Source: Okamejei kenojei (taxonomy: Eukaryota). From it: 64,000 nucleotides of DNA. Shown in pieces: positions 4,199 through 38,106 of the stretch. The translations under genes and the position numbers were made by a program. Where the stretch lies: positions 49,910,001 through 49,974,000 of the forward strand of contig CM069148.1 of assembly GCA_035221665.1 (NCBI GenBank), read 5' to 3'. Under the pieces are notes generated by a model that was not told where the DNA came from, made no database searches, and worked only from the letters and a program-made list of their open reading frames with translations. Every line of letters begins with the position of its first letter. Position 1 is the stretch's first letter.

Positions 4199-4639
4199 CT
4201 CCTACAACATCCAGTATTAAAGTCTTTGATATCGGCTGTTTCAGTGATTTATGTTGAACTTCAATGGTTAATTCAGCCCCTACATCCTTGTTAACATCTG
4301 GATATATTTCCACAATGATCGTCACACTGCAAATCCCATCTGCATTAATGTTATATTCGGGATCCAATGGTGTAAAAGATACATCAACGCAATTTGAATC
4401 CATAAGAATCATCGCTTCATTGCAACCCTCTCCGTTGATCATTCCATTTCTGTTTCCAGTAGATTTACATCTGCTGTTCCAATCTAAAATTGTATTTCTC
4501 TCTTGATCCCCCTTCCTCGTTAGGTATAAGTGAATTGTAATTTCACGAGGTCGGAATAGACACACCCTCCAAGTGATCGTTTCTTTTTCATGATGTTTCA
4601 TGGTTCGACGTCCATTGGGTCCATTGATCTCTGGAGGAA
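4199..4639 (-). CDS. Exon 5, post-transmembrane (putatively cytoplasmic) degenerate IgC1-like domain; gene continues beyond this exon
   Basis: Acceptor ctttgttttgtctag|TT, donor GGAG|gtaaag, 441 nt open, phase 1-1. VPP...TITWRVCLFRPREITI...NADGICSVT...ELTIEVQHKSL echoes the C1 motifs TCxVxGFYP, NxDGTFS and YTCxVxHxSL, with both disulfide Cys replaced (W, I). Confidence 0.8.
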
Positions 4640-4824
4640 CTAGACAAAACAAAGCAGGTAATTAAAACTTGGCAATCTAAATGTTCTTTCTGAAGATACA
4701 AATGTCTGAAGAAGGGTCTCGACCCAAAACGTCGCCTATTCCTTTTCTCCCGAGATGCTGCCTGACCCGCTGAGTAACTCCAGCATTTTGTGTCTATCTT
4801 CAGTGTGAACCAGCATCTGTTCCT

Positions 4825-5530
4825 TGGTAGACAAAAGTGCTGGAGAAACTCAGCAGGTGCAGCAGCATCTATGGAGCGAAGGAAAAATGATGCGATCCTC
4901 CTCTATAGTAGGGGAGGAGAACCCCCGTTCCCTGAAGAATGAGGACATTTCCGATGCCCTGGTGTGGAACACCTCATCCTGGGAGCAGATGGAGCATAGA
5001 TGGAGGAATTGGGAGTAGGCTATGGAGTCCCTACAGGAAGCAGGGTGGGAGGAAGAGTAGTCCAGATAGCTGTGGGAGTCAATGGGTTTATAATGGAATG
5101 TCGGTCAAAAGTCTATCACCTGCGATGGAGATAGTGAGGTCAAGAAATGGTAGGGAGTGTCGGAAATGGTCCAGGTGTATTTGAGTGCCGGATGGAAGTT
5201 AGTGATGAAGCGGATGGTCAGTTGTGTGTGGATGCAGGAGGTAGCACCAAAGCAATCATCGATGTAGCGGAGGTAGAGGTCGGGGATGGGGCCCTGGTAC
5301 GCCGCGAACAAGGACAGTTCGACGTACCCGACAAAGAGGCAGGCGTAGCTAGGGCCCATGCGTGTGCCCATAGCTACGCCTTGTATTTGGAAGAAATACA
5401 AAGGGGGGGGGGGGGGGGGGGGGGGGGGTGGAAGGGAGGGTGGCAGGGAGTGGGAGTCGATGAAGTCAGTGATGATGCTAGAGATAGTGGCCTGGTGCTC
5501 GTAGGTGGGGTCATGGTCCAGGGGTAAGTA
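4825..5530 (-). mobile_element. Penelope-like element RT fragment with adjacent PLE terminal fragment
   Basis: ORF 5105-5401 reads YFFQIQGVAMGTRMGPSYACLF...YLRYIDD, the PLE-type RT motifs QxxGxAMG and RYxDD. Confidence 0.8.
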
Positions 5531-6316
5531 GGAGGAGGTGTCCGAGAGTTGGCAACCAAAACTGCTACTTCACACCACCAGACACCCGAGTTCAATCCTG
5601 ACCTCGGGTGCTGTCTGTACGAAGTTTATACGTTCTCCCTGTGACCGCGTGGGTTTTCTCCCAGATTCCACAGACGTATAGGTTTGTGGGTTAATCGGCT
5701 TCTGTACATTGTCCCAAGTGAGAAGGAGTGAACTAGTATATGGGGCGATTACTGGTTGGCGCGGAAGGGCCTGTTTCCACACTGTATCTCTGAAATTATA
5801 ACTGAAACAAGTTATGCCCAGACGGCCATTCAAAGAGAAGCTCCAAGCCTGGCTGCCTGTCTGTATGGGTATACAATCATCACAGGGTCATCTGTGGTTG
5901 AAACTAAAAGATCACCAGCCCTCCATGTTGGGAAAATGTAACAAGAAGGAATCAAAGAATCACAAAAGCCACACAACTCCAGTACACAGCACACAGGCGG
6001 GGTTCAATGCCAACCTCCGATGTTGTCTATGTGGAGTTTGCATGTTCCCCATGTTGGGTGTTTTAGTTTCCTCCTGCACTCCAAAAAGTTAGGTTAATTA
6101 TGCCCTGTAACTTTCTGCTTGTGTGTGAGGAATATGGTCGGATCAGGTACAAGCTCATGGGAAAGTGGGCTGAATGAAATGCTATTTATGTATACGAGTG
6201 CTCGATGGTTGGCGTGGACGTTGTGGGCTGAATGGCCTGTTTCCGTGCTGTAGCTGCTATAACTCAAGGCAGACAATTACATCGCATTAAGGAACTTTCT
6301 CCATTTGTCATATTAC

Positions 6317-6430
6317 CTGGTCTCAATTTCACAAAGTAAACCCAGAGTCCAATGAAAATTAATGCGCATAGAAGTAATGCGGCAACTACAAGTCCAACAA
6401 TAGTCCCTGCTGACGAATATTCCACAGGTT
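6317..6430 (-). CDS. NCR3LG1: Exon 4, transmembrane segment of NCR3LG1/B7-H6-like protein
   Basis: Acceptor gttttacattccag|AA, donor CCAG|gtaata, 114 nt, phase 1-1. EPVEYSSAGTIVGLVVAALLLCALIFIGLWVYFVKLRP is a hydrophobic helix followed by K/R, indicating type I topology. Confidence 0.85.
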
Positions 6431-7127
6431 CTGGAATGTAAAACATTAAGAATCAGGCACACCCACAAAAACCACGCCACGTGAAATAACCTTTATTTGC
6501 AGACTCATTCATTTTTGCCAATAGTAAATAACAATACAAGTGGACAGGATTTTAAAGAGGCGACACAAGGAACTACAGATGCCAGAGTGTAGTGTAGAGC
6601 ACAGAGTGCTGGAGTAACTCAGCAGCTTCTCTGGAGAACATGGATAGGTGACGTTTCCGGTCGAGACCTTCCTTCAGTCTGATTGCAGTGGGGGAAAGAT
6701 GGAAAGAAAATGGGGGTTGGACAAAGTGATAGGTGAGGAGGGATTTTTACTGATTTGAGGATGGGTGGACAAAAGACTAGAGGTGAAAAGGAGACAAAAG
6801 ATGTCAGATAAGGAGCGAAGGGGAGGAGTGAAATGTAACATATAACAATTACAGCACGAAACTAACATGGAGGGAGGAATTTTGGTGGAAGGGGGGCGGG
6901 TGGTAAAGGGGAGCAAAATGGGAGGTGGGGGGACAGTTATTAAAAATTATTGAAACAATAATTGTGCAATTTATATCCCCTTTAATTAAAGGCCCAGGAA
7001 TTCCAATTAGTGATTCCATGACTTCTGCTGCAATCAGAAATAACTCAAGGGTTTAGAGGGCTATTCACACCTCAATTTCTGACTCGACTCACCCACAGAA
7101 GAGTCGTGTGTAATAGTTAGTTTTAGA

Positions 7128-7385
7128 TGCGGCACAGTGGCGCAGCAGTAGAGTTGTAGCCTTACAGCGCCAAAAACCCGGGATCAATCATGACTACAAA
7201 TGCAGTGTGTACGGAGTTTGTACGTTCTCCCTGTGACCTGTGTGGGTTTCTCTCGGTGCTCCAGTTTCATCCCACAATCCAAGACGTGCAGGTGTGTAAG
7301 TTAATTGGCTTTGGTAAGATTGTAAATTGTCCGTAATGGGGGTTTGGGGGGGGGGGGGCAGGGGGGGGATCGCTGGTCAGCGCAG
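7128..7385 (+). mobile_element. tRNA-derived V-SINE (HE1-like)
   Basis: Head gcggcacagtggcgcagcagtagag followed by the V-core gtttgtacgttctccctgtgacctgtgtgggtttctc. Related copies at about 5570-5790, 15190-15498(-), 35341-35612(+) and 36060-36710(+). Confidence 0.7.
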
Positions 7386-10356
7386 ATCCGAACTGGCAAT
7401 AAAATAAATTCTGCTGCTGCATTGCTGCATATTGGAAAGGAGAGATTAAGAGAATGTACATAAAAAGGGAAAAAGTGAGAAAAATATTACTCATGGCAAC
7501 TAGGCAACTGGAAAAAATAATACGTTAATGGCATATGGAAAGAACAAATTTAGAACAGTACAGCACAGGAACAGGCCCTTAGGCCCACAATGTCCATGAT
7601 GCTGAACATGATGACAAATTTAATTAATCTGCCTGTATATAATCCATATCCCTCCATTCCCTGCATATCATTGTGCTGATTTAAGCCTAGTTAATGCCAC
7701 TATGGTATCTGCCTCCACCACCATCCCTGGCAGCGTGCTCCAACAATTTCTGTGTAAAAAACTTGCTCTGCAAATCTTCTTTAATCTTTGCCCTGTTCAC
7801 CTTGAAGCTATGTCCTCGAGTCTTTGACATTTCCACTCTGGGAAAAAGGTTCTGACTTCTACACCTATCAATGCCTCTGATCATGTTAGATATTTCTATC
7901 AGGGTCTCCCAAAAGCTTGTACTGCCAGGGCCACAAAAATCTGCATGAAGTACTAGGTAGTCAGTGAAAGACCAGCACCAAACTTCCCCACCAAACCACA
8001 AATGTGCCAGGATTTTGTTCATTCTCAATGACTGAGACAGTATCTACTTGTGGTGGAATGGAGTCATACAGCATGAAATAGGCCCTTCAGCCCAACTTCG
8101 CCATGTTGACCAAGATGCCCCATCTATAGTAGTCCATCTAAGTAAGAATTTTCGGTACATGTCTATTAAACACTTGCAAGAATTTCATTGTCCTATCTGG
8201 GACACATGACAATAAACTCTGTTGACTTGACTTGACTTTTGACTCTTGACACCTAACCTTATTTACCCCATATCCTTCTAACCTCTCCAAATGTCTTTTA
8301 AATGTTGTCTCAACTACCTCCTCTGGCAGCTCCATCCATATACCCACCACCACTTTCTGAAAAAGTTATTCTCAAGTTTCCAATAACTCTTTCCCCTCTC
8401 ATCTTAAATCTTCTCGTTCTTATCTTGGTCAAAGGATAAACCCCAGTTAAAGCACTGCACATCTCAGTGAAGGATATGTATTAAGCACACACAAATATTT
8501 TCATATAGATTATTGGAAACATTTTAATAAAGTACGCTGTAAAATATCTCCAATGTTCCTATGAATAAATAACAAAATAAATTTGTCCTGCACCAGCCAC
8601 GTTGAAGCTCAGGCCAAGAAAGCACACCAATGCCTCTACTTCCTTGTACGGCTCAGAAGATCGGTATGTCCCAAACAACCCTCACAAGCTTCTACAGTTG
8701 TGACATAGAAAGCATCTTATTGGGAGACATAACATGGTTCGGGAACAGCTCCATCCAAGACAGCGAGAAATTACAGAGTTGTGTACTCAGCGCAGACCAT
8801 CGCGCAAACCAACCTCCCTTCCACTGACTCCATCTGCACTTCACGCTGCCTCGCAAGGCCACCAGCATAATCAAGGGTCTCACCCTGGCCACTCCCTCTT
8901 CTCCCCTCTTCCATCAGGCAAGAGATACAGAAGTTTAAAAGCAAAAACCTCCAGATTCTGGGACAGTTTCTTCCCAGCTGTTATCAGGCAACTGAATGTC
9001 CGTTTCATCAGCTAGATTGGGGTCCTGACCTCCCATCTACCTCATTGGAGACCTTTAAACAATCTTTAATCATAGAAACATAGAAATTAGGTGCAGGAGC
9101 AGGCCATTCGGCTTTCGAGCCTGCACCGCCATTCCATATGATCATGGCTGATCATCCAACTCAGTATCCTGTACCTGCCTTCTCTCCATACCCCCTGATC
9201 CTTTCAGCCACAAGGGCCACATCCAACTGGCCTCAACTACCTTCTGTGGCAGATGATTTCCAAAGATTCACCACTCTCTGTGTGAAAAACGATTTTCTCA
9301 TCTCGGTCCTAAAAGACTTCCCCCTTATCCTTAAACTGTGACCCCTTGTCCTGGACTTCCCCAACATCGGGAACAATCTTCCTGCATCTAGCCTGTCCAA
9401 CCCCTTAAGAATTTTGTAAGTCTCTATGAGATCACCCCTCAATCTTCTAAATTCCAGCGAGTATAAGGCGAGTCTATCCAGTCTTTCTTCATATGGAAGT
9501 TGTGCCATCCCAGGAATCAGTCTGGTGAACCTTCTCTGTACTCCCTCTATGGCAAGAATGTCTTTCCTCAGATTAGGAGATCAAAACTGTACGCAATACT
9601 CCAGGTGTGGCCTCATCAAGACCCTGTACAACTGCAGTAGAACCTCCCTGCTCTTGTACTCAAATCTTTTTGCTATGAATGCCAACATACCATTCGCTTT
9701 CTTCACAGCCTGCTGCACCTGCATGCGTACTTTCAATGACTGGTATACCATGACACCCAGGTCTCGCTGCATCTCCCCTTTTCCTAATCGGTCACCATTC
9801 AAATAATAGTCTACCTTCCTGTTTTTGCCACCAAAGTGGATAACCTCACATTTATCCACATTATATTGCATCTGCCATGCATTTGCCCACTCACCCAGTC
9901 TTGGATAAAGTCATCCTGCAGCCTCCTAGCATCCTCCTCACAGCTAACACTGCCCCCCAGCTTCATGTCATCCGCAAATTTCGAGATGTTGCATTTAATT
10001 CCCTCGTCCAAATCATTAATGTATATTGTAAATAGCTGGGGTCCTAGCACTGAGCCTTGCGGCACCCCACTAGTCACTGTCTGCCATCCTGAAAAGGACC
10101 CGGTCACTCCTACGCTTTGCTTCCTTTCTGCCAGCCAGTTCTCTATCCACATCAATACTGAACCACCAATACCGTGTGCTTTATGTTTGTATACCAATCT
10201 CTTGTGTGGGACCTTGTCGAAAGCCTTTTGAAAATCTAGATATAACACATCCACTGCTTCTCCCTTATCCACTCTTCCAGTTACATCCTCAAAAAATTGA
10301 ATAAGATTCGTCAGACTTGATTTACCCTATGTAAATCCATGCTGACTTTGTCCAAT

Positions 10357-13300
10357 AACCATATAACCATATAACAATTACAGCACGGAAACAGGCCCTC
10401 TCGGCCCTTCCAGTCCGTGCCGACCATTTGTTTTCCCCTAGTCCCATCTACCTGCACTCAGACCATACCTCTCCATTCCCTTCACGTCCATATACCTATC
10501 CACTTTACTCTTAAATGTTAAAATCGATCCTGCCTCCACCACTTCTGCTGGAAGCTGATTCCACACAGCCACCACCCTCTGAGTAAAGAAGTTCCCCCTC
10601 ACGTTACCCCGAAACCTCTGTCCCTTAATTCTCATGTCATGCCCTCTTGTTTGAATCTTCCCTACCCTCAATGGGAAAAACGTATCCACGTCAACTCTGT
10701 CTATCCCTTTCATCAACTCTGTCTATCCCTTTCATCATTACCCTCAATCAAGTCCCCCCTTAACCTTCTGCGCTCCAAAGAATAAAGACCTAACTTGTTC
10801 AACCTTTCTCTGTAACAAAGTTGCTGAAACCCTGGCAACATTCTAGTAAATCTCCTCTGTACTCTCTCTATTTTGTTGACATCCTTCCTATAACTAGGCG
10901 ACCAAAACTGTACACCATACTCCAGAATTGGTCTTACCAATGCCTTGTACAATTTTAACATTACTTCCCTACTCCTATATTCAATGCTCTGATTTATAAA
11001 GGCCAGCACACCAAAGGCTTTCTTTACCACCCTATCTACATGCGATTCCACCTTCAGGGAACTATGCACAGTTATTCCTAGATCCCTCTGTTCCACAGCA
11101 TTCCTCAATTCCCTACCATTTACCATGTACGTCCTATTTTGATTTGTCCTGCCAAGATGTAGAACTTCACACTTCTCAGCATTAAACTCCATCTGCCATC
11201 TTTCAGCCCACTTTTCCAAATGGCCCAAATCTCTCTGTAGACTTTGAAAATCTACTTCATTATCCACAACACCACCTATCTTAGTATCATCTGCATACTT
11301 ACTTATCCAATTTTCCACCCCATCATCCAGATCATTGATGTACATGACAAACAACAGTGGACCCAACACAGATCCCTGAGGCACCCCACTGGTCACCGGC
11401 TTCCAACCTGACAAACAGCCATCCACCATTACTCTCTGACATCTCCCATTCAGCCACTGTTGAATCCATCTTGCTACTCCGCCATTAACACCCAAAGATT
11501 GAACCTTCTGAACCAACCTTCCATGGGGAACCTTGTCAAAGGCCTTACTGAAATCCATATAGACAACATCCACTGCTTTACCCTCATCAATTTCCCTGGT
11601 TACCGCTTCAAAATATTCAAGAAGGTTTGTCAAACATGACCTTCCAGGCACAAATCCATGTTGACTGTTCCTGATCAGACCCTGTTTATCCAGATGCTTA
11701 TATATATTATCTCTAAGTATCCTTTCGATTAATTTGCCCACCACTGACGTCAAAATAATAGGTCTATAATTGCTAGGTTTATTCTTTGAACCCTTTTTAA
11801 ACAATGGAACAACATGCGCAGTACGCCAATCCTCCGGCACTATTCCCGTTTCTAATGACATTTGAAATATTTCTGTCATAGCTCCTGCTATTTCTACACT
11901 AACTTCCCTCAATGTCCTAGGGAATATCCTGTCAGGACCTGGAGACTTATCCACTTTTATATTTTTCAAAAGTGTCAGTACTTCCTCCTCTTTGAATCTC
12001 ATAGTTTCCATAGCTACTCTACTCTTTCCCCTTAACTCACCGAGTTCAATATCCTTCTCCTTGGTGAATACCGAAGAAAATAAATTGTTCAATATCTCCC
12101 CCATCTCTTTTGGCTCTGCAGATAGCTGTCCATTCTGGTTCTCTAATGGTCCAATTTTATCCCTCGTTATCCTTTTGCTATTAATATAGCTGTAGAAACC
12201 CTTTGGGTTTACTTTCACCTTTCTTGCCAAAGCAACCTCATATCTTCTTTTAGCCTTCCTAATTTCTTTCTTAAGATTCTTCTTACATTCTTTATACTCC
12301 TCTAGCACCTCATTTACTCCATGCCTCCTATAATAATTGTAGATATCTCTCTTTTTTCGAAACAAGTGTCCAATTTCCCTTGAAAACCATGGCTCTTTCC
12401 AATTTTTACTATTTCCTTTCAACCTAACAGGGACATAAAGATTCTGTACTCTTACAATTTCCCCTTTAAATGTCCTCCATTTCTCTTCTGCATCCTTCCC
12501 ATGAAACAAAGTGTCCCAATTCACTCCTTTAAAATCCTTACGCATTCCCTCAAAGTTAGCTTTTCTCCAATCAAAAATCTCCACCCTAGGTCCAGTTCTG
12601 ACTCTCTCCATAATTATATTGAAACTAATGGTATTGAGATCACTGGTCCCGAAGTGCTCACCAACGCATACCTCCGTCACCTGCCCTGCCTCATTTCCTA
12701 ACAGGAGGTCCAGCACTGCCCCTTCTCTGGTCGATACCTCTATGTACTGCTGCAAAAAACTATCCTGCACACATTTTACAAACTCCAAACCATCCAGCCC
12801 ATTTACAGAATGTGTTTCCCAGTCTATTTTTGGAAAATTGAAATCTCCCACAATCACTACCTTGTGCTTACTACTAATATCTACTATCTCCTTACATATT
12901 TGCTCTTCCAATTCACGCTCCCCATTTGGCGGTCTATAATACATCCCTAAAAGTGTTGCTACACCGTTCCCACTTCTCAGTTCCACCCAAATAGCCTCCT
13001 AGACGAGCCCTCTAATCTATCCTGCCAAAGCACTGCTGTAATATCTTCTCTGACAAGCAATGCAACACCTCCCCCTCTGGTCCCTCCAATTCTATCACAC
13101 CTGAAGCAACGAAATCCTGGAATATTTAGTTTCCAATCACAGCCCTCCTGCAACCATGTTTCACTGATTGCCACAACATCATATTTCCAGGTGTCAATCC
13201 AGGCTCTAAGTTCGTCCACCTTACTTACAATGCTCCTAGCATTAAAATATACACATTTTAGAAACCCACCATCCCTTATTCTCGGTCTATTATCTTTGTC

Positions 13301-13852
13301 ATCTTTCTCGCCTACATTTTGAATCCGAGTGCTTCCCTTCTCTGCCTCTTGCCCCACACCCTGACCCCCTAGCCCCCTCTACCCGAGTCCCTCCCCCCAG
13401 CCTTTCTAGTTTAAAGTCTCCCCAGTAGCCTTTGCAAATCTCCCTGCCATGATATTTGTCCCCCTCGGGCTCAAGTGCAACCCGTCCTTTGTGTACAGAT
13501 CATGCCTTCCCCAAAAGAGGTCCCAGTGATCAATAAAACTTGAATCCCTGCCCACTGCACCAGTCCCTCAGCCACGCATTTATCCTCCACCTCATTTCAT
13601 TCCTACTCCCACTGTCACGCGGCACAGGCAGTAATCCTGAAATCGTTACCCTTTTGGTCCTTCTCCTTAACTTTCCCCCCCAACTCCCTAAATTCTCCCT
13701 TCAGGACCTCATCACTTTTTCTGCCTATGTCATTGGTACCTATGTGTACCACAACATCAGGCTCCTCTCCCTCCCTTATCAGAATCTTTTGTACACGTTC
13801 TGACACATGCGAGACCCTGGCACCAGGGAGGCAAACTACCATCCGGGTGAAA
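10357..13852 (-). mobile_element. CR1 LINE family A, long copy: 3' part of ORF1 (SGNH/esterase-like) plus ORF2 (APE endonuclease + RT)
   Basis: ORF 13615-13869 has VVCLPGA...VVVHIGTNDIG; ORF 12977-13357 has YFNARS...ISETWL; ORF 10713-12986 is a 757-aa RT. TSD tccaat at 10351-10356 and 13853-13858. Confidence 0.95.
10713..12986 (-). CDS. CR1 ORF2 (endonuclease C-terminal part + reverse transcriptase), frameshifted at both ends
   Basis: 757-aa open frame with GDFN, DFSKAFDKV, GVPQGSVLGP and YADD. There is a frameshift near 12980 and a 22-bp tandem duplication at 10691-10734. Confidence 0.85.
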   Translation of the reverse strand: MELRSGNGVATLLGMYYRPPNGERELEEQICKEIVDISSKHKVVIVGDFNFPKIDWETHSVNGLDGLEFVKCVQDSFLQQYIEVSTREGAVLDLLLGNEAGQVTEVCVGEHFGTSDLNTISFNIIMERVRTGPRVEIFDWRKANFEGMRKDFKGVNWDTLFHGKDAEEKWRTFKGEIVRVQNLYVPVRLKGNSKNWKEPWFSREIGHLFRKKRDIYNYYRRHGVNEVLEEYKECKKNLKKEIRKAKRRYEVALARKVKVNPKGFYSYINSKRITRDKIGPLENQNGQLSAEPKEMGEILNNLFSSVFTKEKDIELGELRGKSRVAMETMRFKEEEVLTLLKNIKVDKSPGPDRIFPRTLREVSVEIAGAMTEIFQMSLETGIVPEDWRTAHVVPLFKKGSKNKPSNYRPIILTSVVGKLIERILRDNIYKHLDKQGLIRNSQHGFVPGRSCLTNLLEYFEAVTREIDEGKAVDVVYMDFSKAFDKVPHGRLVQKVQSLGVNGGVARWIQQWLNGRCQRVMVDGCLSGWKPVTSGVPQGSVLGPLLFVMYINDLDDGVENWISKYADDTKIGGVVDNEVDFQSLQRDLGHLEKWAERWQMEFNAEKCEVLHLGRTNQNRTYMVNGRELRNAVEQRDLGITVHSSLKVESHVDRVVKKAFGVLAFINQSIEYRSREVMLKLYKALVRPILEYGVQFWSPSYRKDVNKIERVQRRFTRMLPGFQQLCYRERLNKLGLYSLERRRLRGDLIEGNDERDRQS

Positions 13853-14700
13853 TCCAATGATTTCACCACTTTCCAAATGCGCTGCTATCCCACCTTTAAT
13901 AATTGACTCTAGCAGTTACCGCTCTACCGATGTTAGACTAACTGGTCTGTAATTCCCCATTTCCTTTCTCCCTCCCTTTTTAAAAAGTGGGGTTACATTA
14001 GCTACCCTCCAATCCTCAGGAACTACTGCAGAATCATTTTAATCGGACTTTACGGGATGTTATCTTGCACTTAATGTTATTCTCTTTGTCATGGATCTGT
14101 ACTGTGAATGAATCAATTGTAATCATGTAAAGTCTTTCCGCTGACTGGTTAACATACAACTAAAGCTTTTCACAGCAGTTTGGTACGCGTGACAATAAAC
14201 TAAACCAAACTAATCTTTTCTGGACTACTATTCACTGGAATTTAGAAGGATGAGAGGGGATCTTAAATTCTTAAAGGATTGGACAGATGCAGGAAAAATG
14301 TTCCCGATGTTGGGGAGTCCAGAACCAGGCGTCACAGTTTAAGAATAAAGGGTAGGTCATTTAGGACTGAGTTAAGGAAAAACTTCTTCGTTGTGAATCG
14401 GTGGAATTCTCTGCCACAGAAGGCAGTGGAGGTCAATTCACTGGATGTTTTCAAGAGAGTTAGATGATCAGCCATGATCATGCTGGCTCGAAGGGCCGAA
14501 TGGCCTACTCCTGCACCTACTTTTCGATGTTTCTGAGACTCGATAGCATGCAAACAAAAGCTTTTCACTTTACCTTGGTAAACTAAAACTAAACTAATCT
14601 TTTCTGAACTCGAGAGCACACAAACAAAAGCTTTTAACTGTCAGTCGGTAGCTTTGGCAATAACAAACTGAACCAAACTTTTCCAAAGGTTGTAACATAC

Positions 14701-15021
14701 CGTTGACTGTGAGTTTCAACTCGAGCGAGGGAGGGTCAGGATATGATTTATGCTCCACGACACACTTGTACACATTGCCATTATCAACTATAGTTGGTTC
14801 AATTCTCATTGCACTGGAGACATTAAAGGTTTTATCCGGATTATCAACTGGAGATGTGATGAAGACATCGTGGATTATTTTCTCAGTCTTATTCTTGGAT
14901 ACTTTTTCCCAGTAGATGTTATGTGCTTGAGGGTAAAATCCCGTAGCATCACACGTCACCAGCTTCTCCGCACCATTCTCAATGGTAACATGTTGTGTGG
15001 ATAAATGCAGCTTCGGCTGAG
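14701..15021 (-). CDS. NCR3LG1: Exon 3, IgC1 domain of NCR3LG1/B7-H6-like protein
   Basis: Acceptor tctttaatacag|CT, donor AACG|gtatgt, 321 nt, phase 1-1. AQPKLHL...VTCDATGFYPQAHNIYWEK...NPDKTFNVSS...YKCVVEHKS carries the C1-set motifs CxxxGFYP, W, NxDxTF and YxCxVxH, plus two N-glycosylation sequons (NKT, NVS). Confidence 0.9.
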
Positions 15022-16009
15022 CTGTATTAAAGACAAGTGCAACCTCGGGTTAGTTGCCATGCAGTGTATTACCAGAAATAACTGTCACATTAGAAGACTC
15101 TTAAGTCTAAGGGTCAGCGCATACAGCACAGAAGCAGACCCTTCAGCCCAATTTGCCCACAATGACCAAAGTGCCCCATCTACACTAGTTTAGACTTTAG
15201 ACATGCAGCGTGGAAACTGGCCCTTCAGCCCAACGAGTCCACACCATACAGCGATCGCCCTGTGCACTAGCACGATCTACTCTATGGACAATTTACAATT
15301 TTATTTTGCACAAGTCAATTAACTTAAACTTGCACGTCTTTGGAGTCTGTGGAGAGGAAACCGGAGCACCTGGAGAAAACCCACGTGGTCACAGGGAGAA
15401 CGTACAACCCCCATACAGACAGCACCCATGGTCAGGATTGAACCCGGGTCTCCTGCATTGTGAGGCAGCAACTCTACCAGATGTGCCACTGTGCCATCCT
15501 AATCCCACCTGCCCGTGTTGGACCAGAACACTCTAAACCTTTCCTATCCATGTACAAATGTCTTTTAAATGTTGTTATAGTACCTGCCTCAACTACCTCA
15601 TGAGGCAGCGTCTTCCATACACTCACCACCTTCTCTGTGAAAAAGTTGCTCCTCTGGTTCCTATTAAATATTTCCCCTCTCACCTTAAACCTATGTCCTA
15701 TATTAACCTATTGATGGGCTAATACAAAATGGACCACTTTCCTTCCTTCAACTGATTTACAGAGGGCCAATTCACCTTAAAACCTATGCCCTCTGGTCCT
15801 CGATCCCCCTACTCTGGGCAAGAGACTCTGTGTGTCTACACGATCTATCCCTCTCATAATTTTATACACCTCCATAAGATCACCCCTCATCCTCCTGCGC
15901 CGCAATAAAATCCCAGGCTGCTCAACGTCTTCCTGTAGCCCGGAACCTCGAATTCATTTTTACCACCAAGATCCAATAATAACTGGTTATAACTGGTTAA
16001 CTGGTTATA

Positions 16010-17550
16010 AGAAGGAACTGCAGATGCTGGAAAATCGAACATTGATAAAAGTGCTGGAGAAACTCAGCGGGTGCAGCAGCATCTAGGGAGCGAAGGAAAC
16101 AGGCAACGTTTCGGGCCAAAACCCTCCTTCAGACTGATGTAAGGTGGGGGTGCGAGAAGAAAGGAGAAAGGAAGAGGAGGAGCCAGAGGGCTGATGGAGA
16201 GCTAAGAAGGGGAGGAGACAGCAAGGGCTACCGGAAATTGGAGACGTCAATGTTCATGCCGCTAGGGTGCAAACTGCCCAAGCGGAATATGAGGTACTGC
16301 TTCTCCAATTTCCGGTGGTGCTCACTCTGGCCATGGAGGAGGCCCAGGACCGAAAGGTCGGATTCGGAATGGGAGGGGGAGTTGAAGTGCCGAGCCACAG
16401 GGATATCAGGTTGGTTAATGCGGACCGAGCGGAGGTGTTCAGCGAAACGATCGCCAAGCCTACGCTTGGTCTCACCGATGTACATTAGCTGACATCTAGA
16501 GCAGCGGATGTAGTAGATGAGGTTGGAGGAGGTGCAGGTGAACCTGTGTCGCACCTGGAACGACTGCCTCAGTCCTTGAATGGAGTGGAGGGGGGAGGTA
16601 AAGCGACAAGTGTAGCATCTCTTGCGGTTGCAAGGGAAGGTGCCTGGGGAGGGGGTGATACGGGAGGGAAGGGAAGAATTGACGAGGGAGTTACGGAGGG
16701 AGCGGTCTTTGCGGAAGGCAGACAGGGGGGGGAGATGGGAAGATGTGGCGAGTGGTGGGGTCACGTTGGAGGTAGCGAAAATGACGGAGGACTATTTGTT
16801 GTATGTGACGGCTAGTGAGGTGAAAGGTGAGGACCAGTCCTCCGTCATTTTCGCCACCTCCAACGTGACCCCACCACTCGCCATATCTTCCCATCTCCCC
16901 CCGTCTGCTTTCCACAAAGACCGCTCCCTCCATAACTCCCTCGTCAATTCTTCCCTTCCCTCCCGTATCACCCCCTCCCCAGGCACCTTCCCTTGCAACC
17001 GCAAGAGATGCTACACTTGTCGCTTTACCTCCCCCCTCGACTCCATTCAAGGACCCAAGCAGTCGTTCTATGTGCAACAGAGGTTCACCTGTACCTCCTC
17101 CAACCTCATCTATTTCATCAGCTGCTCTAGATGTCAGCTGAGCTACGTCGGTGAGACCAAGCATAGGCTTGGCGATCGTTTCGCCGAACACCTCCGCTCG
17201 GTCCACATTAACCAACCTGATCTCCCTGTGGCTCAGCACTTCAACTCCCCCTCCCATTCCGAATCTGACCTTTCTGTCCTGGGACTCCTCCATGGCCAGA
17301 GTGAGCACCACCGGGAATTGGAGGAGCAGCACCTCATATTCCGCTTGGGCAGTCTGCACCCTAGCAGTATAAACATTGACCTGCAATTTCCGGTAGCCCT
17401 TGCTGTCTCCTCCCCTTCTCAGCTCTCCCTCAGCCCTCTGGCTCCTCCTCTTCCTTTCTCCTTTCTTCTCCACGCCCCCCCCCCCCCTCTTTACATCAGT
17501 CTGAAGAAGTGTTTTGGCCAGAAACGTTGCCTATTTCCTTCGCTCCATAG
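16010..17550. mobile_element. Penelope-like element 3' regions (GIY-YIG endonuclease) arranged as an inverted repeat
   Basis: CTSSNLIYYIRCSRCQLMYIGETKRRLGDRFAEHL is on the - strand (16228-16764), with a near-identical copy on + (within 16836-17550). Arms are about 16082-16793 and 16836-17550. Confidence 0.85.
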
Positions 17551-18312: not shown

Positions 18313-18648
18313 CTAAAACTCGCAGTTCTGAACTTTTTTCTGCCTTTTCAGGAGTAACAAACACAATGCAAGTATATTTCCCTTCGTTGTCCACTCCGAC
18401 ATTATTAAGCAGAAGTGAAGCATCTCCTTTGGATAGTTCACCGGATATTTCTATGCCAGCATTCTTGGACTTATGTTCACCCTTTTCAAAAAGATAGATT
18501 TCTTCCTGGAGTGGTCCGAACAACCACCGCACACCTACATTTGTCATGTCAAGCGGTGCTTTAAACCCAGTAAATTTACATTCCAACAAAACCTCTGTAT
18601 TCAAAAATACTTTCTTCGGACTGGCAAAAATGTTCATATCCAACGAAT
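18313..18648 (-). CDS. NCR3LG1: Exon 2, IgV domain of NCR3LG1/B7-H6-like protein
   Basis: Acceptor ttccatttag|AT, donor TTAG|gtaaaa, 336 nt, phase 1-1. Protein DSLDMNIFASP...LLECKF...VGVRW...GDASLLLNNVGVDNEGKYTCIVFVTPEKAE has the V-set C, W and YxC. GDASL and C-x-V-x-VTP-x-KA match B7-H6 as I recall it. Confidence 0.9.
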
Positions 18649-25602: not shown

Positions 25603-26094
25603 ACAACATCGCCCGCTGCCTTGGGCCGTCATGTTCCCAGTGCCACCGCCCAAAGGGGGAGGCAGTTGGGATCTCCTCGTCCCGCCTTCCCTTCCTCCGC
25701 ATCCAACCCGAAAGGTGTGGGGGCCCGGAGGTGCAGGTGCTTCAGACAAGCGGAAGGGAGTTCTCCTCCCTCTCACGGCCTCGGGCATGCGGAGGATTAG
25801 TTTCTAAAAGCGATTATGCCATTGGCGGGAGTGGCACGCAGCGGCCGGGTACAGGAGGCGGGCGGGGTGGGGTTCCCCAATTGGGGCAGTCGGGGGAAAA
25901 ATGGGGGGGGGGGTTTGGAGAAGGGAGGAAGACGTGGCGGGGGGTGAGAAGGTGATGTGCGGGGAGTGGGGGGGACTTTGAGGTGGGTAAGGGAATGAAG
26001 AGTGGAGTGGGGGGGGCGAAGGGAGGAAGAGGGGGGAAAGGAAGTAGAAGAAGGGAAAAAGAAGCGGCTCAGGCACGCGACAAGCGTTGCAAAT

Positions 26095-26970: not shown

Positions 26971-27329
26971 TGCTAATTTTGATTCTGTTGTGTTGTTCCC
27001 ATAAAGGGCCTGTCCCACGTTATGGATTCTTTGGTGCGACTGACGGCTTTTTAAAACCGTCATGATGCTCCGCAGTCGCAGTAAGAAATTGCAAAGTAGG
27101 ACAGGCCTTTTCAGGAACACCAGCCCCGCCCCCCAAATTTGCAGCGGTGTCGGGTTTACATCACAAACACGCTGAACTCCACAGGGCAAGGCAGAGAACA
27201 AGATAAGGCAGGAGCTCTCTAAGAAACACAGGACACAAGTTTGTCAGTCCATCGCTGTCCCACATCAGCCAGCTTTTCCTTCGCTTGCAAGCGGGCAAAA
27301 TTGGGCCAAAATGATGTGAAAGGTGAGAT

Positions 27330-30300: not shown

Positions 30301-32686
30301 AATTTCTGGGCAAATCCAGAAGACCCAGGATCATTTCTTTCCATATAGGAAGAAAGATTCTAAGCGGACTGCAACTGTCTGACAAGAGAATTCGGGATAG
30401 AAAAAACTAAAAGAAAAGATGTATAACAACAGCAAAGAGTAGCCGAAGCCAGAGGATGGGAAACTTTCATAGGGACAACAGAAGTAAACAAAATGGGCAA
30501 TACGGCTTGAAAGAGGAAGTTTAAAAAATATGAAGGGGGGGGAAACTGGCCAGGAATATAACGAAGGACAGAAAAGCTTCTTTATATATGTAAAGGGAAA
30601 AAAGTAAAGCAACGTCAAATGGTGGGCCCCTGAAGGCAGACACGGGTGAAATTATTATGGTCAACAATGAAAATGCAGAAGATTTTGAACAGATAATTTG
30701 GATCTGTCTCACTAACAGAGGATAGTATTTTCACAAACAATACAAACAATCACCCAGATGTACTGGAGGAAGAGAAGATCTGAGGGGGTAAAGAACTGAA
30801 CGAGAAGGAGTTTCATTAGGCGAGAAATAGTATTGGGTAGGCTAATGGACTGGAGGATGATAAATCCCCTGGGCCTGATGTTGTGACGCTGCATTGGGGG
30901 GGGGTACCCCCCTGTTTTAGGGTTGGTTGTAACCATCATCTTTTTAAGACAGGGAGAAAGAATACAGGGAAATTATAGGCCAGTTAGCCTCACATTGGTA
31001 GAAATAGTGGATGCTGATCGATTATTACAGATGTAATTGCAGAGCATTGGAAAGCATGACAGGATCGGGTTCAAAGACACATGATTATGTGAAAGGGAAA
31101 TCGCTTAACAAATCTTCTGGAATATTTTGAGGATGGGGTTGTTGTATTCTGCATCGTCCTTCGGAGGCTGCTCTAGAAATAGTGGACCATTTTCCAATGT
31201 TCAAAGAGATCAGGATCATTCCTGTGTATTGGAGGATAGCTAATGTCATCCCACTTTTCAAGAAAGGAAGCGAGACAGAAAACGGGGAATTACAGACCAT
31301 TAGCCTGAACTTTCGTTGGTGGGAAAGATGGTGGAGTCCCTATTATTTAAAGAGGTAATAATGGGCCATTTGGATAGCAGTAAAAGGATTAGTCCAAGTC
31401 AACATGGATTTATGAAACGGAAATCTTGCTTGAATAATCTTCTCGAATTTTTTGAGAATGTGACAAGTAAAATGGATGAAGGGGTGCCAGTGGATGTAGT
31501 GTATCTAGACTTTCAGATAGCCTTTCCTAAGGTCCCGCACGGGAGACTGGTGACTAAAATTAGAGCACATGGTATTGGGGGAAGGGTGTTGGATAGAAAA
31601 TTGGTTGGCAGACCGGAAGCAAAGAGTAGGAGTGAACGGGTCCTTTTCAGAATAGCAGGCAGTGGCGAGTGGAGTACCGCAAGGCTCAGTGTTGGGGCCG
31701 CAACTGTTTACCATATATATTAATGATTTGGAAAAGGGAATTAGGAGCAACACTAAGGGGGAAAGTTTGCAGATGACACAAAGCTGGGTGGCAGTGTGAA
31801 CTGTGAAGCGGATGTTAGGAGGTTGCAGGGGGACCTGGACAGGTTGAGTGAGTGGGCAGATGCGTGAGATGCAGTATAATTAAGATAAATGTGAGGTTAT
31901 CCACTTTGGCGGCAAAAACAAGGGGGCAGATTATTACCTCAATGGGGTTAGGTTAGGTAAAGGGGAGGTACAGCGAGATCTGGGTGTCCTTGTACCCCGG
32001 TCACTGAAAGTTGGCTTACAGGTACAGCAGGCAGTGAAGAAAGCTAATGGAATGTTGGCCTTCATAACAAGAGATTTCTGTACACTGAGTAAAGAGGTTC
32101 TTCTGCAGTTGTATAGGGCTCTGTGAGACCACATCTGGAGTATTGTGTACAGTTTGGTCTCCTAATTTGAGAAGGACATCCTTGTGATTGAGGCAGTGCG
32201 GCGTAGGTTCACGAGATTGATCCCTGGGATGGCGGGACTGTCATATGAGGAAAGATTGAAAAGACTATGCTTGTATTCACTGGAATTTAGAAGGATGAGG
32301 GGATATCTTATAGAAACATATACAATTATAAAAGGACTGGACAAGCCAGATGCAGTAAAAATGTTCCCAATGTTGGGTGAGTTCAGAACCAGAGGCCACA
32401 GTCTTAGAATAAAGGGGAAGTCATTTAAGACTGAGCTGAGAAAAATACTTTTTTACCCAGAGTTGTGAATTTATGGAATTCCCAGCCACAGAGGGCAGTG
32501 GAGGCCAAATCACTGGATGGATTTAAGAGAGAATTGGATAGAGCTCTAGGGGCTAGTGGAGTATGGGGAGAAGGCAGGCATGAGTTATTGATAGCGGACA
32601 GTCAGCCATGAACACAATGAATGGCGGTGCTGGCTCGAAGGGCCGAATGGCCTCCTCCTGCACCTATTTTCTATGTCTCTATGTTT
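27330..32686 (+). mobile_element. CR1 family B ORF2 (APE to RT to 3' tail), indel-rich and duplicated across an N gap
   Basis: Degenerate APE start near 27350 and RT fragments at 31316-31723 and 32184-32468. Tail ctatgtctctatg at about 32671-32683. Confidence 0.8.
29045..29721. other. Assembly gap (N run)
   Basis: 677 consecutive N. Confidence 1.
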
Positions 32687-33119
32687 AGGTTGCACGGCGG
32701 GACTTTAGGTGGCCATTGGCACCCGGACAACCGTTAATTTTGAGTCCTGCCAAGCAAATTAAACTACAAACTTGTATGTGTTTGGAGTGTGGGAAGAAAT
32801 CCAAAGATCTCGGAGAAAACCCACATGGTCACGGGGAGAACGTACAAACTCTGTACAGACAGCACATGTAGTTAGGATTGAACCTGGGTCTCAGCCGCTG
32901 TAAGTGTTTTAAAGCAATACAACTGTACTGCCACCATGCCGCCCCTAATTGGTATTTGGCTGCACAGTCGTGAGTGTATAAGGATTATAGAAGGGGGCTG
33001 AGAACACATCCATGCAGGGCACCAGTGTTGAGGGTTATTGTAGTGGATGATTTGTCACCGTTCCTTACTGATTGTGGTCTGTCGGTCAGGAAGTAGAAGA
33101 TCTAGTTCAGATGGTTCTA

Positions 33120-34504
33120 CAGGGCTCGAAATTAGCGGTTGCCCGGGTGCCAATGACCACCCAAAGTGCCGTTGGGCAACCTAAACGCCGACTCATTTTG
33201 CCTGGCTTGGCACGCAAATACTGGTTTATACCGATTGACACAAAAAACTGGAGTAACTCTGCGGGTCAGGCAGCATCTCTGGAGAATAGGAGCGTGACGT
33301 TTCGTGTTAACGGCGGCGGCTGTATTCCTCTAGTATCTTTGTTTGTGGGGCAAAGATACTAGGTGCAGGGTGACGAAGGATCGGAGCGAATGATGGGTCT
33401 CGAACAGTGGCAACAGCCCCCGCACCCCGCCCGGCGGAAGGAGGCCTCCCTCTCTCTCCCTCCCTTCCTCCTCCCGGCCTCGGTGTGCGAGATGGGTTGT
33501 TTTGAAAGCGCAGTTGGTGGATTTGCAGCAGTATCTTTTGATCTGCAGACAACGGCCGCTATCGCCTTGATAACGTGCGCTGCCTGCAAACCTGCTAACG
33601 GCGCTTTCAAAACAACCCCTCTCGCATGCCGAGCGAGAGAGAGGGAGGCGGAGGCCTCCTTCCGCCGTGTGAAGCAGCTGTACCAAAGATCCTATAGCTA
33701 TAGGATCTTTGAGCTGCACCGCTCGGCCCTGCACCTTGCTGTTGGCTGGCGGAGGAGGGGAGCGGATGCAACGAGTTCCCAACCACCTCCCCCTTTGGCG
33801 GCATCACTTTGGCGTTGGACAGGACGGCCAAGGCAGCGGGCGATGTTGTCTGAGGAGCACTGACCTTCCTTCCTCCCCACCTCCTCTGCCCCTTCCCCCC
33901 CCCCCCTCTCTCTCTCTCTCTGTGTCGTACGCCCATCCTCTCCATCCCGCACTGATCCTCATTCCCGCCTCTATTCAGTTCTCACTGACATCCCCTGTGC
34001 TCCCCTCCCCATCTACCCCACCCCCCCCCAATCTATTAATCACCCTACCCACCTCGCATTGATTCTCCTGCCACCCCCCCTCATCCATTCCTACACTGGT
34101 CCCCCAATTCATCCTGTACTGACCCCCCATCCCATCCATCCTGCACTTCTCCCCCCCATTCATCCTGTACTGATCTTCCCCCATTCATCCTGTTCAACCA
34201 TTCTTCAGACTGATGGGTTTCGGCCTGAAACGTTGCCTATTTCCTTCGCTCCGTAGATGCTGAGTTTCTCCAGCACTTTTGTCTACCTTCGATTTTCCAG
34301 CATCTGCAGTTCTTTCTTGAACATAATATGTGAATGCTTCATTGAGCATAATTCTGACTGGTAACTACGCACTTCGTCCGAGCACATTATCGCACACGTC
34401 ATGCAAACCGCCTTAAATGACCACCTAAACTGTCATTTGGCAGCCTAAAAAGCTGTCAAGGTTGCCCGGCTGCAACAGGGAAAAAAAGTTAAGCGAGAGC
34501 CCTG
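33120..34504 (-). mobile_element. Second, shorter copy of the CAGGGCTC 5-bp-TSD DNA transposon, opposite orientation
   Basis: Ends cagggctcgaaatt...ttaagcgagagccctg. TSD ttcta at 33115-33119 and 34505-34509. 34323-34504 is the reverse complement of about 19736-19918. Confidence 0.8.
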
Positions 34505-36225
34505 TTCTACCTCTGTTCAAGAAATGCAAGAGGTTGAGCAGGCTAGGACTTTATTCCTTGGTGCACAGGAGTATGAGCGTGATATTATAGAGGTGTACAA
34601 ATTCATAAGAGGAATAGATCAAGTAAATTCACAGACTCTTGTGCCCAAAGTAGAGGAATCAAGAACCCAAGGACATGGGTTTCAGGTGAGGGGGAAAGAT
34701 TTAATAGGAATCGGATGGGTATTTTTATTTTACACAAAGGGTGGTTGGTGTATGGAACGAGCAGTTGGAGGAGGTAGTTGAGGCAGGTGCTATCACAACA
34801 TTTAAGAAACATTTCACAGGTACTCGGATAGGACAGGTTTAGAGGGATATCGGCCAAACGCACGCAGCTGGGACTAGTGTAGATGGGCATGTTGATAGGG
34901 ATGATAGATTGGGCCGAAGGGCCTGTTTCCATGCTGTGTGACTCTAAGTGGACATGCAACAGACTCCACTGGTGGTGCAGGATATGGTTTATCTGGGAAC
35001 AAAGCAGAAGCAGCCTGGAGGACGAGCACTTCATAAATAAAACTTGGATAACTTGCAACCCAGCGGTATGAATATTGAGACTCAAGGAACTGCAGATGCT
35101 GGTTTACAAAAAAACTTCCACAAAGTGCTGGAGTACTCAGCCGGTCAGACAGCATCTCTGGAGAACATGGATAGGCAACGTTTTGGGTCGAAACCGTTCT
35201 TCAATGGAAATTGAAATCTCAAATTTCCCTGTCCAATGACCTGGCTTTTGTCTTGCTTTTACCTCCAGCCTATGTCCACATATCTGCCAATCACCCCCCC
35301 CCCCCCCCCCCCCCCACCACCACCACCACCTTCACCTTTAGGGCGGCCCAATGGTGCAACGGTGGAGTTACCGCCTCCAGCGCCAGAGACCCAGGTTAAA
35401 TCCCTACGGGTACTGTCTGTACGTAAATTGTACGTTCTCCCCGTGACCTGTTCAGGTTTTCTCCGAGAACTTTGGTTTCCTCCCACACTTCAAGGACGTA
35501 CAGGTTTGTAGGTTAATTGGTTTGGTGTAGATGTGAATTGTCCCTGGTGTGTGTAGGATAGTGATAATGTGCGGGGATCGCTGGTCGGTGCACTCGCTGG
35601 GCCTGTTTCCTTGAGTTTAAGCAATACCTAATTATCTGGTAGATTACTGAAGTGCCTGATCACAAATACCAACACTAACCCTTCAACATTCTAAAATGAA
35701 CACATAAAATCACTCATCACTATTAAAGAGGGTCCCTATCATCTACCCACTAGTGAAGCCGCAACCAACATCAGTGACAACAAATTTCCTCTCCATGATC
35801 TCGTGGTCTTTGTGAGATTTTCCATGTGCAAACTAGATCACTGTGTTTCTAATATTGCAACTGTGATCATGCTTAAAAAATACTAACAATTCAAGGAAAT
35901 CAGGGACATTTTACGGAAGAGATAGATTGATAAGTACGGGTGTCAGGGTTATGGGAAGAAGGCAGGAGAATGGGGTTGAGGGGGCGAGTTAGATCAGCCA
36001 TGATTGAATGGTGGGGTAGACTTGATGGGCCAAAAGACTGCTTCAAATCCTTTCAAATCTGGGCAGCACGGTGGCGTAGCAGCAGAGCTACTGATTTACA
36101 GTGTCAGAGACCTGGGTTCAATGAAGTACGTTCTCCCTGTGACCTGCGTGGGTTTTCTCCGGCAGCTCCGGTTTCCTCCCACACTCCAAAGACATACAGG
36201 TTAATTGTGTAGTTGAGTAGTGTTA

Positions 36226-36629
36226 TGCCCCTGTCCCACTTAGGAAATCTGAACAGAAACCTCTGGAGACTTTGCGCCCCACCCAAGGTTTCCATGCGGT
36301 TCCTGTAGGTTTTGTCAGTCCCCTCTTTCCCTAATGGTTGAAAGTGGTTGCCGCTTCTATGTTCCGGCGATTATTTCAAAAAATTCAAAACCGGCCATGA
36401 CTAAAAATAGGTTGCCGTTTTTAAAATCGGTAATTTTTTAGTCGAAGTGGGTTGCAATGCTAGTTGAAGGTGGTTGCCGGAGGTTGCAGGTTGTGGAAGG
36501 TAAGACCTTTTTTTCACCCAGTTTTATTAAGGGGACTGACAAAAACCTCCGGGAACTGCACAGAATCCTTGGGTGGGGAGCAAAGTCTCCAGAGGTTTCC
36601 GTTCAGGTTTCCTAAGTGGGACAGGGGCA
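36226..36629. mobile_element. PIF/Harbinger-type MITE inserted in a V-SINE
   Basis: Long TIRs tgcccctgtcccacttaggaaa...tttcctaagtgggacaggggca. 3-bp TSD TTA at 36223-36225 and 36630-36632. Confidence 0.85.
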
Positions 36630-37970
36630 TTAGTGTGCGGTGATCACTGGTCGGTGCAGACTCGGTGGGTTAAAGAGCCTGCTTCCACGCCAAATCTCTA
36701 AACTAAACAAAAAAACTAAACTGTCATTGCAAATGTGTAACTGAAACGGGGTTAATGACCAGAAAGTTGGAAAAGGATATACTGACTGCAAAAGCTGCAA
36801 TAGTGTCATTAAGCACAAATGGTTGACTAATAATCTTCCGGAAGAGATACCTTACTCCGTTTTGCTAGTCTGTGCCCGACCCTAGACCTACACCACAGTG
36901 CTTCTCTGTGGTAATGTAACAAGCCACTACTGCCACTTTCAAACAGAATAAAACTGGTTGTGTGAAGATAGAATCACATTGCTGGAGTAGCTGAGTATAA
37001 CAGGTATACTGAGATGCCATATCCATGGACAGGTACGTGCATAAGTAAGGTTAGACCGATATAGTCCAAACGCAGGCAATTGGGACCAGCGTAGATAGGA
37101 CATCATGGTCGGCAAGGACGACTTGGCCCAAATGCGAGCTGGAGAAACAACACGTCATATGAACATTGAATTCTTCAATTGTAAGTAACCAATAATACCA
37201 CTCCCTTCTCCCCCACCCCTCCCCTCTGCCCCACCTCAACTTGTCTCACACCTTCTGTCTTTTCATCTCTGGCCTTTGACTAACCATCTGCCTTGGCTTG
37301 TACCTCCTCTCTTTCAGCATTCTCTCCACCCCCCACGCCCCACTTGTCTGAAGAAGGGTCCCAACGCAAAACATCGCCCAACCATGATCTCCAGAGATTT
37401 GTGGGAAGGAACTGCAGATGCTGGTTTACACTATAGATACAAAAAGCTGCAGTACCTCAGCGGGACAGGCAGCATCTCTGGAGAGAAGTTTTGGGTTGTG
37501 TCTCCTCCTTTGGTGTCAACTAGGTCGAAAATAGACGCAAAATGCTGGAGTAACTCGTGACAGATCGCCCTGTTTCAGTAGTTCTTAGTTATTTTAGTAT
37601 TCCTTCACACGTCTAAAATATTTCCACTCCTTCACAAAATATATCTACTTAGCAAAAACAAATCAAACGATAATTACATTACATTATATAACCTGCAATA
37701 CGTTTCTGGACAACGTTTTTGGGCGCGGCTCTCTGAGCTTCGATAATCACATTTGAAACTGCAAGGACTGCACTCTGCAAAGAGCCCGCGCATTGTCAGC
37801 GTTGCAAAGAATAATGAGATGCCATAGAGTTTTTATGGTTGAATGGAAAGTGCAACTTGCAGGGAAAAGAGTGTTTGAGGGAGAGAGGGAGAGAGAGAGC
37901 GAGGTGGAGAGGGCATTGGAGAGAGAGAGGGAGAGGGAGAGATAGAGAGGGGGTGGGCATTGGCCGTTAC

Positions 37971-38106
37971 CTGCCGCAGGTAGCAGCCACACCAGCGCCA
38001 GCGCCAGTAACAGGGTGGACAGCCGGGTTCCCGGAGAGGAGCAGCAACCCCTCGGCCCCAAGACAGTCCTCGTCCGGCCGCAGCCAGCGCCCTGCCCCGC
38101 CACCAT
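37971..38106 (-). CDS. NCR3LG1: Exon 1 (signal peptide) of NCR3LG1/B7-H6-like Ig-superfamily gene
   Basis: ATG at 38106-38104 in AAGATGG context. Encodes MVAGQG...RLSTLLLALALVWLLPAA with a hydrophobic leader core. Ends GCAG|gtaacg, a phase-1 donor, 136 nt, in frame with the IgV exon. Confidence 0.75.

Follow-up and report, generated by a model that had tools for sequence, protein, structure and literature searches.

A predicted cytosolic array of C1-set immunoglobulin domains in the tail of skate B7-H6 (NCR3LG1)

The C1-set immunoglobulin (Ig) fold is otherwise tied to antibodies, T-cell receptors as well as the major histocompatibility complex (MHC), where it is extracellular and pinned by a disulfide. 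The cytosolic Ig-domain proteins titin, obscurin, palladin and filamin are soluble and use I-set or filamin-type domains, and receptors of type I that carry an Ig domain inside the cell (icIg receptors) have reportedly been described in non-mammalian vertebrates. Human B7-H6, a ligand of the natural killer (NK) cell receptor NKp30, has 454 amino acids and a Gag-homologous cytoplasmic tail that carries an immunoreceptor tyrosine-based inhibitory motif (ITIM) and SH2 and SH3 motifs, as described in PMC2715080. Here we describe a gene that begins in a 64,000-nucleotide stretch of the skate Okamejei kenojei (GenBank assembly GCA_035221665.1, contig CM069148.1, abbreviated C18, positions 49910001-49974000; hereafter the window). 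By best PDB match, ectodomain tree and partial synteny, this gene is skate B7-H6 (NCR3LG1). We lean, with modest confidence, towards the view that it encodes a type I protein with an NKp30-binding V-C1 ectodomain and a cytosolic tail of five Ig domains, which would serve trafficking and docking and limit display of the ligand at the cell surface.

Five minus-strand exons in the window have AG/GT borders, meet in phase 1 at every junction and together form 449 codons with no stop, which reproduces exactly the exons, phases and frame of an initial annotation of the same DNA (Table 1). Hydropathy of the 449-codon product picks out a leader and one transmembrane (TM) segment, followed by K and R. 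Further domains had been foreseen beyond the window, and four more Ig exons lie to its left. The predicted join of the whole gene comprises fifteen exons and 975 codons with no internal stop; the 975-residue product has the layout V-C1-TM, five C1-like tail domains and acidic mini-exons, whose usage is also predicted, with no second TM segment. The post-TM tail amounts to ~675 residues, with the five C1-like domains and the acidic repeats. Six of the mini-exon copies are intact and two are broken, one by a frameshift and one by a stop, which may reflect decay or assembly error.

In a type I protein, a leader together with a single TM segment puts the C-terminal part in the cytosol. The post-TM tail of the skate protein is very probably cytosolic, because there is a leader, a B7-H6 ectodomain with cysteine pairs and putative glycosylation, one TM segment with basic residues and no later TM segment. 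A word search returned 21 relatives, all elasmobranch but for one frog protein; of the 20 elasmobranch proteins, 19 have, like the skate product, exactly one internal hydrophobic segment. The initial annotation showed no second TM segment, and this holds, as does the predicted cytoplasmic placement of the post-TM Ig domain, which follows from the single TM segment with none later. The cysteines are in line with a cytosolic tail. Cysteine pairs of the ectodomain are complete in 22/22 aligned rows. The F-strand cysteine is found in 0/22 rows for tail domain 1, 0/22 for domain 4, 2/19 for domain 5 and 6/19 for domain 7, and the B-strand cysteine of tail domain 6 is found in 0/18 rows. In the skate exon 5 itself, the canonical Ig residues are lost as originally described (B-strand Cys to W, F-strand Cys to I and C-strand Trp to Y), and five Cys remain elsewhere in the exon.

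To follow splicing, contigs from four sequencing runs were compared with positions 4000-15100 of the window. No run is recorded as RNA, and X2 is flagged as probably DNA; the contigs were treated as RNA because both introns are skipped. In run X18, one 2005-nt contig carries exon 3 (414-736) and exon 5 (851-1291), with 2 differences each, and the gap between them is 114 nt, the length of the TM exon. The contigs of X1 and X2 have the same 114-nt gap and 10 differences in exon 5, and extend 1177 nt past that exon; X5 gave separate pieces only. Exons 3 and 5 are thus spliced 114 nt apart in 3/4 runs, from two studies, and the gap in X18, X1 and X2 indicates that the TM exon is joined to exon 5 in transcripts, as had been proposed. 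Derivation of the X1 and X2 contigs from a broken duplicate of the gene (Table 1) was rejected: three listed variants are shared with it, yet the contigs are gapless at its 3-nt deletion and at its broken C1. The TM segment is retained in 22/22 skate isoforms at NCBI, the 23rd record being a fragment.

The B7-H6-like identity given in the initial annotation agrees with both the PDB matches and the ectodomain tree. Human B7-H6 is the best PDB match of the V exon (E 2.8e-10) and the first match of a whole skate orthologue (E 3.5e-32, with B7-H3 at 1e-17). Table II of PMC3135353, in the accessible part of that source, lists 11 NKp30-contact residues of human B7-H6, and six of the 11 are identical in the skate V exon, the T-P-x-K FG loop included. 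The tree contained 33 rows and was midpoint-rooted, with no B7-H3 outgroup and no human row. In it the skate protein groups with Leucoraja and Rhinoraja (100/100), and a 25-row clade (89/84) unites the skate gene with Alligator, kiwi, turtle and a peccary row; the last was recognised by its likeness to the human B7-H6 sequence and nests among reptiles and birds (96/96 and 98/96). An RPS13 exon (C18:50.687 Mb) and a phosphoinositide 3-kinase Ras-binding exon (50.560 Mb) lie on the 5' side of the gene, on the opposite strand and 0.6-0.75 Mb away. The neighbours of human NCR3LG1 are RPS13, PIK3C2A and NUCB2 on the 5' side and KCNJ11 on the 3' side.

Exon 5 alone gave no Pfam match and no PDB sequence match, and its single-sequence AlphaFold model (predicted local distance difference test, pLDDT, 57) had no Foldseek match at E<=0.001. 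That model was superseded by one computed with 19 aligned relatives, which reached a pLDDT of 81 and a predicted template modelling score (pTM) of 0.78; the insert at residues 59-72 is modelled at low confidence. The top Foldseek rows for this model are Ig domains (SYG-2 at E 2.8e-6, MHC II and beta-2-microglobulin). Comparison with VIA gave Z 11.9 and a root-mean-square deviation of 2.0 over 102 residues, the top rows being tied across C- and V-type domains, and Z 10.8 against the B7-H6 C domain. AlphaFold, Foldseek and VIA thus all predict the Ig fold that had been assigned to exon 5. At the sequence level, the C1-set profile is matched by 3/19 aligned relatives (best E 7.8e-5) and not by exon 5 itself, and the PDB matches of the exon-5 family profile are the Ig heavy-chain C domain, beta-2-microglobulin and MHC II. 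The ESM Atlas returned only scores under 0.8, and a query with the alligator tail returned generic C1-set clusters. The initial annotation had read the tail exon as a duplicated C1 exon. The gene's own ectodomain C1 is one possible source, but the best-scoring matches of tail domain 3 are the C1 domains of Ig heavy chain, SIRP and MHC.

The low-confidence insert of exon 5 ends in a putative sorting signal. Acidic dileucine patterns are recognised by the clathrin adaptor protein (AP) complexes AP-1, AP-2 and AP-3, and work only in the cytosol. We scanned the insert of domain 1 in 60 representatives, chosen because their full match lies no more than 20 residues from a TM segment. A loose form, [DE]xxxL[LIMV], is present in 37/60 inserts and the strict form in 23/60; 1000 shuffles gave a mean of 6.2 and a maximum of 14 for the loose form, and 3.8 and 11 for the strict one. 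An acidic residue (D/E) stands four residues before the dipeptide in 40/64 cases, against a background of 15%; ectodomain windows, as a control, give 3%. Because the representatives share ancestry, the motif frequency reflects conservation and not independent origin. This conserved dileucine-type motif suggests trafficking control. In the mechanism that we propose, the V-C1 ectodomain of skate B7-H6 would likely bind NKp30, and the acidic dileucine, placed in a flexible loop of the tail domain nearest the membrane, would engage AP clathrin adaptors. The ligand would thereby be routed into endosomes or lysosomes for as long as the motif is not masked by stress or infection. The other tail domains would form an extended rod offering binding surfaces, and the lone buried cysteines of the tail would be tolerated, the compartment being reducing.

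Several observations weigh against this reading. The skate motif has the loose L-M form only, 23/60 relatives carry no motif, and the rows are related by descent. In addition, the AlphaFold model shows a helix at residues 72-79, so the motif leucines may be structural. Both cysteines persist in tail domains 2 and 3 (18/18 and 21/21 rows with an intact domain, respectively), as would be expected of lumenal domains. The "disulfide-free" character first assigned to the tail therefore fits domains 1, 4, 5, 6 and often 7, and is ruled out as a general statement by the intact pairs of domains 2 and 3. Similarly, one sequon column of the tail is kept in 11/22 rows, as in lumenal domains. The initial annotation had contrasted exon 5, where 0/12 Asn lie in a sequon, with the two sequons of the ectodomain C1; the counts are correct, but such a depletion is at chance level (~0.15, by arithmetic from composition). 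Over all domains, 98/736 Asn (13%) of the tail are in sequons vs 45/247 (18%) of the ectodomain, with ~14% expected, which is not significant. We rejected sequon depletion as proof of topology, and the argument has no weight because tail use is near expectation and one tail column is kept. With respect to splicing, the TM piece and the 6317-4639 joint are read from the 114-nt length, and four TM-less database models (P0040, P0063, P0081 and P0101) fuse C1 straight to the tail. Finally, a Kir-channel gene, the presumed 3' neighbour in human, is not adjacent to the skate gene; the nearest match is 23 Mb away.

An unlikely alternative keeps the same topology and makes the tail mainly a reverse-signalling scaffold, in which clustering of the protein by NKp30 would be followed by tyrosine phosphorylation of the mini-exons and by SH2/SH3 docking there and on Ig surfaces. 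Five intact mini-exons carry D/G-Y-G-K-I in an acidic context, 15 residues apart, an acidic Tyr is found at the same place in several sharks, and the human tail has ITIM, SH2 and SH3 motifs (PMC2715080). However, the tyrosine is replaced by Cys in Rhinoraja, the Y+3 position is non-hydrophobic in Amblyraja or Leucoraja, and conservation is lowest (0.17) in the acidic region, which is missing from an intact tandem paralogue, gene B. A reading of the mini-exons as resembling an immunoreceptor tyrosine-based activation motif was set aside as weak, the motif not being conserved among skates or lineages. We consider it rather improbable that the tail domains serve inside the cell as sensors or decoys, which pathogen proteins would bind or cleave with a resulting change in NK-ligand display. 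The variable number of domains (1 to about 10), the local gene duplication and the fusion of the same domain type to tachylectin (P0094) or PYRIN (P0154) would suit such a role, but the tail domains are no more divergent than the ectodomain, and both fusions are single unverified gene models.

Less credible still is an action of the tail domains mainly outside the cell, as a secreted isoform that skips the TM exon. All exons are phase 1-1, so in-frame loss of the TM exon is possible, and the symmetric exons, the four TM-less models and the intact cysteine pairs of tail domains 2 and 3 are in line with it. On the other hand, each of the 3 contigs that run from exon 3 to exon 5 includes the 114 nt, none of the 22 NCBI skate isoforms omits the TM segment, most tail domains have lone cysteines, and the sorting motif is of a cytosolic type. 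A minor TM-skipped isoform may nevertheless exist, because contigs drop rare variants. That exon 5 onward is a separate downstream gene, joined by an annotation artefact, is highly improbable: exon 5 has neither its own leader nor a Pfam match and the joint is read from length, but exons 3 and 5 occur in single contigs, and the V-C1-TM-tail order repeats in gene B and in 65 of the 146 new representatives among the best 150 of 221.

We return to the cytosolic trafficking and docking tail and to its distribution. The profile of exon 5 collected 221 representatives at E<=0.001; the best 150 were considered, 146 of them new. Among these 146, the exon-5-type match is full-length and follows a TM segment in 65, precedes one in 0 and belongs to a protein with no TM called in 18; the corresponding counts for partial matches are 35, 7 and 21. 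Twenty identified relatives come from chimaera, horn shark, sawfish, reedfish, coelacanth, lungfish, newt, frogs, lizards, turtles and alligator. The records are named NCR3LG1 in Alligator and Lacerta and "uncharacterized" in skates, sharks, chimaera and coelacanth. Kiwi and box turtle records also have exon-5-type sequence after the TM segment; the peccary record has none, but looks incomplete. The number of domains in relatives ranges from 1 to about 10, via tandem exon gain and loss. Instead of the one redeployed C1 exon that was first envisaged, there is an array of 5-7 domains common to jawed vertebrates.

Over 12 lineages, the mean identity is 0.30-0.41 for tail domains vs 0.38-0.43 for the ectodomain, and lowest, 0.17, for the acidic region. 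Conservation of the tail domains is thus close to that of the ectodomain, so they are under selection. Because the tail recurs from chimaera and sharks to amphibians and reptiles, parsimony indicates that the Ig tail is probably ancestral, and its absence in humans, with the Gag-like tail, derived. Therian mammals likely lost the Ig tail, and human B7-H6 has the Gag-like one instead. A broader proposal is more tentative, and we would give it slightly less than an even chance: that the tail of ancestral jawed-vertebrate B7-H6 consisted of about seven C1-set domains arrayed in the cytosol, with a dileucine sorting switch in the first, kept from chimaera to crocodilians, replaced by a Gag-derived tail in the human lineage, and undescribed in print. 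No description of the tail was found in the literature searched; Flajnik 2012 and Ohta and Flajnik 2015 lie outside its coverage and may mention it. The accessible parts of PMC2715080, PMC3135353, PMC6514059, PMC10751288, PMC11599192, PMC4536121, PMC13262535 and PMC11926128 do not mention the tail.

Related architectures were also seen. A second tetrapod lineage outside the main clade (P0158, P0171 and P0157, from Xenopus, Pogona and Caretta, two of them named SIRP-like) has V-C1-TM and tandem post-TM Ig domains, the Xenopus model being without a clear TM segment. P0094, a single gene model of Xenopus laevis, has V-C1-TM, a single tail Ig domain and, after it, a tachylectin domain. In P0154, also a single gene model, a PYRIN domain is fused to C1 domains of the exon-5 kind with no TM called; it is possibly a soluble cytosolic Ig protein.

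Table 1. Features of the skate B7-H6 gene and of its neighbouring copies. Window positions count from C18:49910001.
Feature	Position	Strand	Description
Exon 1	window 37971..38106	-	ATG; leader with hydrophobic core; 45 codons; donor in phase 1; skate orthologues share the leader
Exon 2	window 18313..18648	-	IgV domain, B7-H6 type; Pfam V-set, E 2.4e-9
Exon 3	window 14701..15021	-	ectodomain IgC1; C1-set E 2.3e-12; both cysteines, two sequons; present in spliced contigs
Exon 4	window 6317..6430	-	sole TM segment, 114 nt, K and R next; hydropathy peak 3.09
Exon 5	window 4199..4639	-	first Ig domain after the TM segment: C1 in degenerate form, lacking the B-F disulfide and carrying a long variable insert
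Acidic dileucine-type motif E-A-M-I-L-M	window 4401..4418	-	end of low-confidence insert, exon 5; candidate clathrin-adaptor sorting signal
Three further C1-set exons	C18:49909388, 49908115, 49904503		Pfam C1-set E 1.9e-13, 4.1e-16, 4.5e-7
Acidic mini-exons, 33-47 nt, eight copies	C18:49902993-49864142		repeated pairs ~11 kb apart
Terminal Ig-like exon, stop codon at end	C18:49856437-49856136		weak: Ig_3 E 5.7e-4
Gene B, intact tandem paralogue	C18:49833463-49801455		V-C1-TM and six tail domains; loci L010, L021, L022, L023
Broken partial duplicate	C18:50009801-49999828		C1, TM, exon 5, exon 6; ~91-97% DNA identity; loci L013, L014
Lone open exon, exon-5 type	C18:50024673-50024240		E 4e-13; locus L016

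Gene B is orthologous to sawfish P0051 (100/99) and keeps the dileucine motif in its strict form. It has no acidic repeats and no seventh domain, and its leader exon was not located. In the partial duplicate at 50.00-50.01 Mb, C1 is frameshifted, exon 6 contains a stop and the dileucine region has lost 3 nt; its V exon was not found, and it is probably a pseudogene. No partner exons for the lone exon were found across 50.02-50.17 Mb; it resembles a horn-shark subfamily that repeats the exon-5-type domain in tandem (P0042). Searches for tail domains 5 and 6 found neither at the skate locus, and no match above 39% identity in the rest of the genome.

The introns and the upstream region contain retroelements. 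A long interspersed nuclear element (LINE) open frame of 761 aa, with endonuclease and reverse transcriptase (RT), lies in intron 3 (window 10716-12998, minus strand), and many fragments elsewhere are presumably CR1-like. Fragments in intron 2 (16231-16791, minus) and intron 4 (4853-5569, minus) have a GIY-YIG match below cut-off (E 7e-4), and we take them to be Penelope-like. Upstream of the gene there are remnants at 46400-48450 (minus), 51780-52874 (plus), 55891-56847 (plus), and 55318-55650 and 59800-61514 (minus). We assume that these are L1/Tx1-like RT and open reading frame 1 (ORF1) pieces and DIRS-like pieces; Pfam confirms one RT match only.

A conserved cytoplasmic C1-set array on an NK ligand would mean that this fold is usable in the cytosol, and would make the tail domains natural disulfide-free C1 scaffolds. 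The human Gag-like tail would be recast as a late replacement. The layout spans sharks to reptiles but not human B7-H6, and the tail likely controls the surface amount of the ligand. How B7-H6 is kept off healthy cells becomes testable, the dileucine motif naming two residues (window 4401-4406) to mutate.

Human B7-H6 (PDB 3PV6, 4ZSO and 6YJP) shares with the skate protein the leader, the V-C1 ectodomain and one TM segment. The two differ in the tail, which is Gag-like in human and consists in the skate of C1-set Ig domains and acidic repeats. The Gag-like tail is absent from the skate protein, and it is not a feature of the reptile records named NCR3LG1 either. The non-mammalian NCR3LG1 models have the same V-C1-TM-(C1)n layout, cysteine-loss pattern and motif as the skate gene, although their record names are silent on tail topology. 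Compared with their seven-domain form, the skate copy is missing tail domains 5 and 6, and it has one V-C1 pair, whereas most Amblyraja and Leucoraja isoforms have two. The icIg receptors resemble the predicted skate protein in crossing the membrane once and having an Ig fold on its cytoplasmic side, and the feature that marks the class, an Ig domain C-terminal to the sole TM segment in the same transcript, is present in the skate gene. The intracellular-Ig class is thus probably known, and may already include NCR3LG1 homologues. However, the icIg receptors reportedly have single adaptor-docking domains, whereas the skate tail is a tandem C1-set array with an embedded sorting motif. In titin, obscurin, palladin and filamin, tandem Ig domains are stable without the B-F disulfide, as in the skate tail; in contrast to these soluble proteins of I-set or filamin type, the skate array is C1-set and membrane-anchored behind an immune ectodomain.

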